Below, piece by piece: positions 1 to 7,001 of a DNA stretch of 64,000 bases. The first letter of the stretch is position 1; each line of letters starts with the position of its first letter. The DNA comes from Podarcis cretensis (taxonomy: Eukaryota): assembly GCA_951804945.1 (NCBI GenBank), contig OX638150.1, positions 39,060,001 to 39,124,000 of the forward strand. The letters run 5' to 3'. The position numbers were made by a program, and so were the translations under genes. The notes under the pieces are model-generated. The model was given only the letters and a program-made list of their open reading frames with translations. It made no database searches and was not told the origin of the DNA.

Positions 1-2222
1 AAATGACATGCTGCTGAACTCTCCCTGCGTGACACACACAATCTTGGGGCAAAAGGGTCGTCTACATCCAGGGCCCTCTGAGATGCTCTTCTTCAACTGT
101 ATTTATTTCTTTGTCCCTTTTCTGCTCTTCCGTGGCTCAATTAGTGCCCTCCAATTCTTGCTCTAGGGATTCTTTCCTCTCTTCATCTGTTCTGACCAGT
201 TCTCTTTCCAAATCATCTAAGTTCATAATAATTTTTGCTGCCCCCTGTGCACCTCCTAATCTTTTCATATTGTTCTGTTTTTCATCTAATCTACTTTTAA
301 ATCTGCTCTGCAATAAAACCTTAACCTATATAGGATATTGGATAAGCATTGTTGTATAGGAGCTTCGGAATTAGCAAACCTATTGCAGTATCAGTGTCAT
401 CAGTCGGGTAAGGGTGGATGGAGTCACAGGGATAATCAGCATCCCTGTGTATTTTTGGCTTATCTAGAGGGATATTGCTTTTATATCTCTTTCCATGATA
501 TACCTGATGCTATCTCTTAAATTCAATTAGTTAACCAAACCAGGCATTACTCTTGTTTACGGTACAGGCAAAACCAGATGTGACTTGTTTCAGATTTCTC
601 TCTTTAGACCTGGGACAACATCTGGGGAAATGCTTCTGTAATTACTCTCTAAGCTAGAAGTCATTACCTCAGTTGATCTATATGAGCTCACAAGATTAGA
701 CATTAAGGGGAAATTAGACCAGAGTTGACCACATCAAACAACAACTGAAAGGTTGAGCATCTGTACATGTTTCTCTCCCCTCTGACCACTGATTGCCTCA
801 TGATCCAGTCAGCACAGCAATTTCCAAACAATGTGAGACTACGAACTCAACCATATAGCAGCCATTGAGAACAAGAGCCGTCAGCTGTGGAAGGAACATA
901 AAATACAGTTTGGGGGAAGAGAATTGGGGGGGGACGGACGCATAAATGAAATTCGAAGCTGTTATGATCTATTTAACCCAGTATTGAATCCTCTAACATC
1001 AGGATCACCAATCTCTTTGGGCAAGTGGGCACATTGGAATTTTGAGGAGTGTCACAAAATGGATGCAATGGGGGCATAAAACTGCTGGTGGTGTAGCATA
1101 ACACAAAATAGCTGTCACACCTGAAAGAACAGAAAAAGAGACAGGATCAAAAAATTGTGTATGTGGTGTGTGTGTGTGTGTGTGAAAACATCTATATCAG
1201 CCACTGCTGCGCTCACTCACAGAAATAAGCTCTGTGCACTTCTCCTGAATTCAGAATGGAAGGGACAATGGTGTCCAATTCTGGCTTTCAACTGAATGGG
1301 GTTATGTTTAAGAGGGAGTGTTCAATGCAGGACATACTGGGACACTGGAAGGAATTCATTGTCATACTCTTCTGATTGTTTTTGTCAGTGCAAATGAAGC
1401 AACCCCCCCTTCCCTCCACCAGTGTGCCAGTCTGGGGGTTATCCCAATCCTCCTGAGTCAATTTAAGGGGGCGCAGGGGTACACTCAGAGAGAGGAGGAA
1501 GGAAAGCCCCATTACACAAGCAGAAGTCCTTTGTGCAGGGCTTCCACCTATGAGACTCATTAGGTGAATCCCACCCGCTGCAAATAGGAGCTGAGCAGGA
1601 AAAACAAACAGCGTTCTTTAAATTTACGGAGACTTTTGCAGATGTCATGTGCTGGTGACCCTCTTAGAGTCTCTCCAAGGTCTTAGGCGAAGCATTTTCC
1701 AGCCCTCCTACCTGAGATCCGTTAAGGGTGAAGACAGACGTACAGTACATAATTTTGGTAGTGAGCCTGATCTGGAAGTGCAATTACCTTGTATTTTTAA
1801 AAGTCATAGCTATGGTGTTAATTTCAGATTTCTTGGCTGGCACATAGCCCACATAAACTGGACATGTAAATAATCCTGACTCTATGATTCTATATGTCTC
1901 CACAGTGGGGGTGCAGGAACGATTTGTAGCTGTACCAGTTTTCCAGAATCCCTGTTTTGGTCGGCCACTGGAGGGCAGTGAGATGACTGCAAGAAGTGAT
2001 GCTTCATGCAGGCTTTTTTTTTTTATACAAAGTCTATTGCTGTTGGCAGCAGGAAGACAATACTGTATAGATGGCAGAGTACCTTTTCTATCCTGTTTTC
2101 TAACATTCCAACATATCTCCTAAAATTCTGGCAAGACCGAGAACAGAAACTCGGAAGCAGCTGGGCAGGAGCAGGCCATATTCTTAATGGCTGAGGTCGG
2201 AAGGACTACAAATACATTGTAG

Positions 2223-2347
2223 CTGAAGAAGTGTGCATGCACACGAAAGCTCATACCAATAACAAACTTAGTTGGTCTGTAAGGTGCTACTGGAAGGAAT
2301 TCTTTTATTTTGTTTCAACTACGGCAGACCAACACGGCTACCTACCT
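2223..2347 (+). mobile_element. Short Penelope 3' remnant containing a second hammerhead core (2223-2256)
   Basis: Near-identical to 6083-6212; CTGAAGA-A-GTGTGCATGCACAC-GAAAGCTC-ATAC. Confidence 0.8.
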
Positions 2348-3149: not shown

Positions 3150-3990
3150 TTAAAATTGAGGCGCGCTCCATCTAGTGGCTTGTTTTTAAAATGCTATCTC
3201 TCTAGTGCCCGTGTGAGCATAAGGGAGGGGGCGGAGTGCGGGGGGAGTCAGTCCAAAGCAGGGCGGGGGGGGGGGAATCAGGTTGACGAACTACAAATAC
3301 CAGAAGCTCTCAGGGCAGCGTCGGAAGGCCTCGGAAAGTAGGCCGGTCGACCCCGTTGGATTGCAGCAAATTTAATGTTATTTAATTTGCTTTATTGCAC
3401 GGTTACCCCTTGTAGATGAGAACAGCATTTTGCAGAATAATATCCCCGAATTTCTCTCCCCGCTTATTCATACTGTGCATCCCCCTCCACCCGCCCCGCT
3501 TGCTTCGCGTCAGCTCCGCTTGCCTTTTGCCGCAAAGGCTGCTGAGACCCGCATAAAGCTGCAGGCGGAGGGAAGGCGCGCAGCGGCCGCGGCCAGCACT
3601 TCAGAGCCATGGAAAAACTGCTGAAATCCGAACTGAAAACCACCGCGCTGAAGGCGTTTGGGAGCTCGGGAGGAGGGTGCATAAGCCAAGGGCAGAGCTA
3701 TGAAACCGACCACGGGCGAGTGTTCGTTAAAATCAACAACAAGCCTCAGGTTCACGGCGATATTGATAGAGCTCCCTAAATACTAATATATGGCTGCAGT
3801 TGGGGATGAGGGGAGACTGGGAGGGGGCGTAACTTGGCAACAGACGGTGATTGGCTAGTTGAAAGCTCGTATGTTGGGCGAATTCTGGGGAGAGGTCTGC
3901 AGCACTGTATTCCAATCTGCGCCACAATCAAACTCGTTCGAAAAGAGTTTCCAACTCTTGACTGCACAGGGGGCGCGATAAGTTTTCTAT
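3150..3990 (+). promoter_or_regulatory. FN3K CpG-island promoter
   Basis: CpG-rich span over exon 1; GC boxes (GGGGCGG near 3227 and 3261); ZNF143-associated ACTACAAATACCAGAAG at about 3290; CTCF-like motif at 3165-3179. Confidence 0.75.
3609..3749 (+). CDS. FN3K: Fructosamine-3-kinase coding exon 1 ([47 protein letters not shown])
   Basis: Kozak gccATGG at 3609; 141 nt; P-loop GGGCISQG with Cys24 and FVK lysine; donor CAG|GTTCAC. The six exons join to 930 nt = 309 aa, the length I recall for human FN3K. Confidence 0.95.
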
Positions 3991-4813: not shown

Positions 4814-5650
4814 GTAAGACAGTGCCACACGGCTGTCCCCTTGTTAAAATATTGGCCACTTGGATTTATAGTTCTGCTCTGTTGTCTCTGAGTTCTGAAA
4901 AGTGTCTGTTTTACTGTCTTTAAATAACATGTCTCTGGAAGTGAATTTAAGGGAATTAACAAGCGCACATCCACATTGCATTATGTGATGCCTTCAGTGA
5001 AGTTATGCCAGCGGGGGACTTCTCTCTTCACTTGCTTCGGCAACTTGTATGCTGTATCTTGACAATTATATGCATCTGTCAGAAGTCTGAGAATGTCCAT
5101 ACTATGTTATCTGTCTTATATGGAATGTTTTGGCTAGATTGGCCTCCTGAGGTTTACTGGGCCAACTGCTAGCATTCAGACTTCACAGGACTTTAAAAAA
5201 AAAATCTATAAAATGTTAAAGTTTGATCATGTTATTTGGTCTTGACTGAAGTGTGGATACAGCTATCCAAAGGCCAGCGATGCACAAGTCATAGCTACGT
5301 AAGGCTTTTCTCACTCAGAAGTTTGCAGCCCTTCCACTTTGGCAGTTCAGCTCAAAATTAAAAGTAGATGTAGCACCTAAAACAAAATTAATGCCATTCC
5401 CATAAGGTTTTGGCTTTGAGTTACCTCAAGAGTGCCATGCAAAGACACTCCAGGTTCTGTTGTTTAGAGATAGTGATGCTTTAGCTGAGATTCCTGCATT
5501 GCAGGGGATTGGAGTAGAATGACTCTTTGGGTTCCTTCCAACTCTTTGATTCTATACGTTAGTGTGAAATGTTTGGTTTGTATATAAAATCAAGCTGGTT
5601 TTGAAATTTCCTGATACATAATATTGGGATATGTTTCTTTGTTCTTCTAG

Positions 5651-5742
5651 ATATTCTGCAAAACTTGGAGAGCAAGTAGCAGATCTTCACTTTTACAACC
5701 AAAAACTTGGAGAAAAAATAAAGAAGGAAGAAAACACAGTTG
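5651..5742 (+). CDS. FN3K: FN3K coding exon 3 (YSAKLGEQVADLHFYNQKLGEKIKKEENTVG)
   Basis: ttcttctag acceptor, GTAAAG donor, 92 nt, phase-compatible. Confidence 0.96.
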
Positions 5743-5785
5743 GTAAAGTATAGTTTCTATGCACCAACATAACTTTGTAATAGTA

Positions 5786-6216
5786 TCATTACAAAAGAAT
5801 TGCAGAAACAGACCTGAAAGAGAAGTTGCTGAATTGCAACTGAAAACTATGGAGGGACCTGGTCTTAATAGAGATATTGGATTCCTGTCTCATTACATAT
5901 GCTAATCATCTGCATACTATCCCTTGCTTTTTCCTGTAGGTCTAATTGCAGTCTTTAACAGTCGTCCACAGGTTTACCATACCCATTGAGTCAATCACCC
6001 ATCTACTACTACCCTCCTGAGGAAAACCCCACCCCACCCTCCCACTATATATAAGGGTCTGGTGACTTCTGTTTCAGTGTATCTGAAGAAGTGTGCATGC
6101 ACACGAAAGCTTATACCCAGAACAAACTTAGTTGGTCTCTAAGGTGCTACTGGACAAATTTTTATTTTTATATATATATTTTGACTGCGTCAGACCAACA
6201 CGGCTACCTACCTGAA
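5786..6216 (+). mobile_element. 5'-truncated Penelope-like element in FN3K intron 3
   Basis: Encodes SLQKNCRNRPEREVAELQLKTMEGPGLNRDIGFLSHYIC*, resembling a GIY-YIG C-terminus; 12-bp TSD TTTGTAATAGTA at 5774-5785 and 6217-6228; 3' end shared with 2223-2347. Confidence 0.85.
6067..6122 (+). ncRNA. Minimal type I hammerhead ribozyme motif (Penelope-associated)
   Basis: GTAT-CTGAAGA-A-GTGTG(CATG)CACAC-GAAA-GC-TT-ATAC; distal stem I TTCTG/CAGAA. Confidence 0.75.
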
Positions 6217-6578
6217 TTTGTAATAGTAGTTCCTACTTTGGTTGGTGACATCCCAAGAAAGTTGGTTGTTGCACTTAAGTGCTTCTTGAATTAGCAGGAC
6301 TTGCACACAGCTGTTGGTTTTTTTTTCTGGATGAAAGTTGAGGTGTTTGTTAGGTACAATGGTGTTAAGAGCAATTTGAACAGCATGCAGCTAGGGATAG
6401 TGGTACAAATAATTTGCTGCTTATTTCGAGTTTAAGGTTTTATCACGTACTACAACGTCAATAACACTTTTGCAGATATAATGATGATACAAAAAGTAGC
6501 CACTTTCTGCATCAAGAGGGATTGGCTGCTTTTACATTTTGCACCCTTGCTTTGATTAGTTTTGTTGTTGTTGAACAG

Positions 6579-6661
6579 GGAAAGGTGCAGGCCAGACAGA
6601 ATCTCATCATGTGGATAAGTTTGGATTCCACATTGTCACCTGCTGTGGCTATATAGCTCAG
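6579..6661 (+). CDS. FN3K: FN3K coding exon 4 (KGAGQTESHHVDKFGFHIVTCCGYIAQ)
   Basis: aacag acceptor, CAG|GTAAG donor, 83 nt, FGF...TCCG motif. Confidence 0.96.
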
Positions 6662-6779
6662 GTAAGCTCCTCCTTTTATTTATTAAAAAGAAAGAGAAGT
6701 TGGAATGTCACTGCATTGAAAGGTGGCATGTACACTGGTCACTGTTTTGAAGGGGAGTGAAGAACACACACACACACAA

Positions 6780-6964
6780 AGGTAACTTGTTAATTTAACG
6801 TTTATTTCTATGAGGAGGAGTAATTCTGAGGGGTCAAACAAAGAAATAATAAAGAAGTGACAAAAAAGTTATTTTTATAATGACGAGTTTTGCGGCTCCC
6901 AGTTTTTTTTCCTTCGGAAACGGGTCCAAGTGGCTCTTTTTGTCTTAAAGGTTGCAGACCCCTA
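6780..6964. mobile_element. hAT-type DNA transposon end fragment
   Basis: ttttgcggctccc...aaaggttgcagacccct terminus; only one end seen. Confidence 0.55.
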
Positions 6965-7001
6965 ATCTAGACCAACCCCCTGGCATATTTTTGCTTTGTA
7001 G

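Follow-up and report, generated by a model that had tools for sequence, protein, structure and literature searches.

The window analyzed here, a 64,000-nt stretch of Podarcis cretensis contig OX638150.1 (forward strand, positions 39,060,001 to 39,124,000), carries on its plus strand the exons of a fructosamine kinase gene, whose start codon is located at position 3609. Exons 2 and 6 match the Pfam family PF03881, and the best PDB matches of exon 6 are fructosamine-3-kinase structures (E 5e-58). A TBCD-like exon (PDB match, E 4e-4) lies downstream, and this gene order is taken by us to mark the host as FN3K, not its paralogue. Introns 2 and 4 contain other high-copy repeats at approximately 5475-5550 and 6700-6975, respectively (very high contig depth). 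Literature searches by title or abstract start, with queries not aimed at FN3K itself, found no paper on this locus. Features of intron 3 and its surroundings are summarized in Table 1.

Table 1. Coordinates (window numbering) of the FN3K exons, the Penelope-like insertion and its hammerhead motif
Feature	Position	Strand	Basis and remarks
Second short copy, C17 form	2215..2347	+	29-mer match at 2223; 1.4 kb upstream of FN3K start; without 5′ strand of stem I
FN3K exon 3	5651..5742	+	AG/GT ends and translation
FN3K intron 3	5743-6578	+	Sequence; length 836 nt
Left TSD, 12 bp	5774..5785	+	Direct repeat
Penelope ORF end, decayed	5786..5905	+	ORF translation; last 39 codons and stop (end of GIY-YIG endonuclease)
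TATA-like box and initiator-like site	6046..6078	+	Sequence; box 6046-6055, 30 nt upstream of A at 6076
Distal helix UUCUG / CAGAA	6067-6071 / 6118-6122	+	Sequence
Core-blocking hairpin, predicted	6072..6088	+	Pair probability from folding; 6072-6077 with 6083-6088
Minimal type I hammerhead	6079..6116	+ (sense to FN3K)	Sequence; cut site 6112/6113 predicted
Stem I, 4 bp	GUAU 6079-6082 / AUAC 6113-6116	+	Sequence, pairs checked
Core CUGAAGA	6083-6089	+	Sequence
Extra A between A9 and G10.1	6090	+	Sequence
Stem II, 5 bp, loop CAUG	GUGUG 6091-6095 / CACAC 6100-6104	+	Sequence; G6091-C6104 is G10.1-C11.1
GAAA	6105-6108	+	Sequence; G12 at 6105
Palindrome AGCU	6108-6111	+	Sequence
U17	6112	+	Sequence
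Remaining pLTR and Penelope tail	6117..6217	+	3′ ends of family copies lie near 6154 or 6217
Right TSD, 12 bp	6217..6228	+	Direct repeat; first base shared with element end
FN3K exon 4	6579..6661	+	Sequence and translation

Intron 3 harbours a 5′-truncated copy of a Penelope-like element (PLE), a stump of 432 nt (5786-6217). An earlier note on this DNA had described the element as bounded by a perfect 12-bp TSD and starting shortly after the exon 3 donor; the TSD was confirmed, and the element begins 43 nt past the donor GT (5743). Such a repeat is above chance, as 1,595 random pairs of junctions drawn from the window gave none, and flanking repeats of at least 8 bp were present in five of 10 simple full-tail sister copies. 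Reverse transcription of a read-through element RNA, beginning at the tail (6217) and ending at 5786, would have produced the copy. Two sense pyrimidine runs ending in AG are located inside the element (5916-5940 and 6067-6077) and represent possible cryptic splice acceptors.

The ORF stump is approximately 75% identical to the ORF ends of sister copies. The nearest long relative among those compared (L056) is 91.2% identical to this copy, i.e. about 9% diverged, and the alignment of the two revealed a 12-nt deletion in the stump. No Pfam match was obtained for the 39-aa ORF piece alone. The ORF of sister copy L009 matches the GIY-YIG domain (PF01541; 25.8 bits, above the cut-off), and this domain is preceded by a CX4CXXC linker, seen in the translations of L008/L009, L127 and L112. 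The linker in the sister copies suggests that the element is probably of the Neptune type; the preference for Neptune over Nematis follows from the linker plus what we take to be the host range of these groups. The overall layout is that of PLE (EN+), in which an ORF with a C-terminal GIY-YIG domain is followed by a hammerhead-bearing pLTR and a tail. A CX2-5CxxC linker between the reverse transcriptase and the endonuclease is given as a mark of Neptune/Nematis, and its position before the C-terminal GIY-YIG in a sister copy, the pLTR, the tail and the frequent inverted 5′-truncated partners are all features shared with the Neptune-clade elements described by Craig et al. (2021; PMC8557442), whereas the FN3K copy is just a 432-nt stump.

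The earlier note had proposed that the element carries a minimal hammerhead ribozyme, sense to FN3K, with stem III reduced to a palindrome. This proposal is supported, and the letters, stems, core, extra A and palindrome were each found at the position given for them. The motif has all of the conserved letters of PLE minimal type I hammerheads, i.e. C3-U4-G5-A6-N7-G8-A9, G12-A13-A14, A15.1-U16.1 and H17 (6083-6089, 6105-6108, 6111 and 6112), together with further traits of this group: the extra base between A9 and G10.1, the G10.1-C11.1 pair and a palindrome at positions 15-16. Since A15.1 and U16.1 are two bases apart, stem III is unable to close within one molecule. Stem II and its loop (6091-6104) form a perfect 14-nt palindrome.

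Cervera and De la Pena (2014, PMC4209133) described minimal hammerheads in fish Neptune elements as well as in turtle and snakes, and this kind of motif is already published for reptile Penelope elements. The Podarcis motif resembles the metazoan PLE hammerheads of that report in being of type I, with a short stem I, an extra base between A9 and G10.1, a G10.1-C11.1 pair and a palindromic stem III region, as well as in its pLTR location and its occurrence in thousands of mostly single copies. It differs in the length of stem II (5 bp versus 7-8 bp in the Schistosoma families), in the great uniformity of the family and in the presence of a U17 subfamily beside a C17 majority. Another reptile PLE, PAc Poseidon of the green anole (Frangieh et al. 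2024, PMC11167929), also has a hammerhead in its pLTR and two 3′ ends (tail), and its uncleaved RNA likewise appears to be the template, but it belongs to a different clade and its ORF begins inside the ribozyme.

The search with hammerhead models that the earlier note had suggested gave no match above threshold: Rfam hammerhead families were not detected at the gathering threshold in the window, nor at E values up to 10 in the region 5700-6300. This silence is expected, because the motif lacks stem III. The 29-nt core was matched twice in the window and never in 100 shuffles, while the loose core pattern by itself does not exceed chance (19 window matches; eight of 100 shuffles reach 19). The one other copy in the window is located 3.9 kb away, outside the coding span. 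The locus does not fit a non-LTR retrozyme, as it holds a single copy with a coding stump and not non-coding tandem units each with a hammerhead.

Within the 1.5-Gb genome the 29-nt core has 8,485 exact matches (reversed control, 0). When stem I is included, C17 is present in 6,322 copies and U17, the form found in FN3K, in 272. The idea that U17 is a private decay of the FN3K copy was rejected in view of these 272 exact copies and the linkage of U17 to other diagnostic sites; because U17 travels together with these sites, it defines a subfamily. Cleavage of a U17 triplet is probably slower than that of a C17 triplet; no sourced literature value was found for the rate of CUU versus CUC. When sister families with different stems were sought, 50 matches were returned, of which 48 are variants of the same family. 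Two rare diverged hammerhead elements, L204 and L210, have the same core, AGCU and U17 with different stems. In L210 the core and palindrome are kept with different, paired stems I and II, and in L204 less well (two loci only). They are likely to be older Penelope families.

The folding of the motif was modelled in several RNA contexts, with energies that leave out tertiary contacts and proteins. In six read-through contexts the core-blocking hairpin has a pair probability of 0.35-0.78 and stem I one of 0.02-0.20; the hairpin falls to 0 if the RNA starts at 6076. In short RNAs starting at 6076 or 6079 the probability of stem I is 0.51-0.64, and it drops to 0.14 once the RNA is extended to 6216. 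The earlier note had read the distal UUCUG/CAGAA pairing as an extension of stem I; its letters are present, but the helix is predicted to form alongside the blocked core, not with stem I. The hexamer UUUCAG at the presumed start site (6072-6077) is complementary to the catalytic core, may act as a switch silencing read-through RNA, and is predicted to pair with the core in FN3K pre-mRNA.

The active dimer is predicted to be unfavourable. The active double hammerhead, held by only one 4-bp stem III and two 4-bp stems I, has an energy of -14.3 kcal/mol, versus -22.6 kcal/mol for two monomers and -39.6 kcal/mol for the best dimer. The latter is a 14-bp stem II duplex, owing to the perfect palindrome formed by stem II and its loop. 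Thus, the stem II palindrome is predicted to dimerize the RNAs far more strongly than AGCU does, and in a non-catalytic form.

The 5′ ends of family copies bear on whether the RNA templates were cut. They were mapped in 93 distinct copies, taken from the first 100 listed of 9,882 matches to an anchor motif downstream of the cut site; all of these copies come from one contig arm, no gaps were allowed in the mapping, and at least one long copy was wrongly scored as short. Twenty-eight of the 93 copies begin at 6075-6081 and only three around the cut site (6110-6116), while 26 are spread over 6083-6109 and the remainder extend further upstream. Loose contig ends at 6079 were also present in sequencing run X5. 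The preferred region contains a TATA-like box and an initiator-like site, recognizable from the consensus motifs of these promoter elements, and the interval 6046-6078 is likely to be the element's own transcription start, as judged from its sequence and the 5′ ends. The initiator-like site abuts stem I (6046-6082). These features suggest a Neptune family with a TATA-type promoter, unlike the TATA-less Penelope of Drosophila (PMC2377424). In the source element the RNA would open with the motif, directly behind this start, and this placement is predicted to favour the formation of stem I; the distal helix lies upstream of the likely start, so an element-initiated RNA would be devoid of it.

Since the 5′ ends peak at the start-like site and not at the cut site, most templates appear to have been uncut at the ribozyme site, a result that concerns templates and not all RNA, as cut RNA may go uncopied. 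At the family level this agrees with the anole in vitro result: the Poseidon ribozyme is described as inactive without protein, insertion does not require cleavage, and RNA-seq reads ending at the cut site are given as absent (PMC11167929).

The start-like site could also affect FN3K without any catalysis, by giving rise to an internal transcript, as could a cryptic exon formed through the AG acceptors at 5939-5940 and 6076-6077. Both sequence features are present, the distribution of family 5′ ends suggests that source elements have a functional start site, and the insertion lies 43 nt from the donor. The same features occur, however, in every read-through copy (the upstream heptamer is kept in 27 of 90 U17 copies) and the insertion has been tolerated in four organisms. 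Such an effect is judged very unlikely.

The catalytic base G12 lies in a CpG (C11.1/G12). Genome-wide, G12 was lost in 826 copies and C11.1 changed in 723, so that the ribozyme CpG is mutated in 1,549 of 10,034 copies (15.4%), compared with 1,237 of 7,993 (15.5%) for a control CpG in the tail, the latter count taking in double changes and the former not. The equal decay rates indicate that, on balance, selection neither favours nor disfavours the catalytic base once a copy has inserted, although genome-wide neutrality can mask selection at a single locus. An excess of mutations at the ribozyme CpG in a small sample (16/73 versus 1/39) was gone in the whole-genome counts.

The genome-wide sense/antisense bias that the earlier note had suggested looking for was not seen with a weak proxy, namely the transcription-linked strand skew of the flanks, used without annotation (window bins 0.027-0.050). 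The mean over 75 of the 90 U17 loci, the other 15 having been dropped because both orientations are present, was -0.0007 ± 0.0029. The 52 loci with 10-kb flanks leaned antisense (13 versus 6 beyond 0.02; Wilcoxon p 0.31) and the 23 with 3-kb flanks leaned sense. Complete removal of sense copies would be expected to shift the mean to roughly -0.02, and a mild bias stays compatible with these values.

The earlier note had also inferred that FN3K pre-mRNA could be cleaved by the motif and that dispersed copies might form an RNA-cleavage network. Our data do not support this: a blocked core and an unfavourable dimer are predicted, G12 decays at the neutral CpG rate, 5′ ends are not enriched at the cut site, no orientation bias was detected with the weak proxy, and minimal motifs are poor cutters in the published account, where a single metazoan motif showed no cleavage and dimers cut weakly (PMC4209133). 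Cleavage of FN3K pre-mRNA at 6112/6113 is therefore considered unlikely, as far as the models can tell.

The motif might nevertheless be activated in trans, if an element RNA partner or the Penelope protein (likely in the germ line) folded it, in which case FN3K and many sense-intronic copies would be cut. The core and the AGCU palindrome are intact, there are thousands of potential partner copies, and this copy retains its tail, while the anole ribozyme is protein-assisted (PMC11167929). The related retrozymes of Xenopus are somewhat under-represented in introns, yet 42-44% of them are intronic (10.64898/2026.07.22.740005). Against this, the active dimer is predicted to be less stable than the monomers or the stem II duplex, G12 decays neutrally, the 5′ ends do not peak at the cut site, and no orientation bias was seen; moreover, splicing can still proceed across an intron that has been cut (Dye 2006 as cited in PMC4410947). 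We regard trans activation as a very unlikely explanation. If true, a transposon able to cut many host pre-mRNAs would be new. Much the same low credence is given to a model-based variant, in which sense-intronic Neptune copies would be latent ribozymes whose own start-site sequence blocks the core until element protein or partner RNA unlocks it; a transposon burst would then lead to the simultaneous cleavage of FN3K and many further pre-mRNAs.

The insertion was looked for in sequencing runs of four organisms. The 5′ junction (from unique flank into the element) is crossed by contigs of single-copy depth in all four runs, and the 3′ junction by one contig; sharing is thus shown for the junction, as the contigs break in the repeat before the orthologous motif. 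No empty insertion site was found among the 15 of 82 joints shown. The common junction indicates that the insertion is older than the split of these organisms, which are close relatives (0.53-0.70 of words shared, few flank substitutions).

Amniote intronic hammerheads and the CPEB3 ribozyme are single-copy and deeply conserved. The FN3K motif could, by analogy, be a conserved intronic ribozyme adopted by the host, and its sense orientation, intact core and junction common to four organisms fit such a role. However, the four organisms are closely related by sequence, stem III is impossible in the monomer (2-nt loop), and the core is identical to that of thousands of passengers, so its intactness needs no selection. 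The likeness to the amniote hammerheads and the HDV-like CPEB3 ribozyme (PMC6765202, PMC10274809) lies in the sense location within an intron of a protein-coding gene, while the FN3K motif belongs to a transposon with thousands of copies and has no stem III in the monomer. Adoption by the host is accordingly judged extremely unlikely.

The reading that we favour, with a probability of roughly 0.85, is that the motif in FN3K intron 3 is the built-in hammerhead of a truncated Neptune-type copy and a silent passenger, removed uncut by splicing. In FN3K pre-mRNA stem III would need a second molecule, and there is no second copy within the transcript; with a core predicted to be blocked, an open stem III and no partner copy, an 836-nt intron would seldom be cut before it is gone. 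The intactness of the motif probably reflects a fairly recent spread of the family and not host retention. Several points count against the passenger reading: all conserved core letters are intact despite about 9% divergence, the insertion has lasted in four organisms, and even element-initiated RNA extended to 6216 has a stem I probability of only 0.14. In addition, the anole ribozyme cuts once the element protein is added (PMC11167929). As one of thousands of passengers, the FN3K locus itself matters little; the results of wider use are those on the family, i.e. the neutral decay of the catalytic base after insertion and the origin of copies from RNA uncut at the ribozyme site.

Finally, at 15 of the 90 U17 loci the ribozyme is present in both orientations (inverted insertions), so that in any transcript of these the motif would be paired to its complement. 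In two inverted insertions (L072 and L076; G000:C1 near 767,600 and 957,000) G12 is lost in both arms, which hints that donors without catalytic activity were still copied or that the arms were converted.
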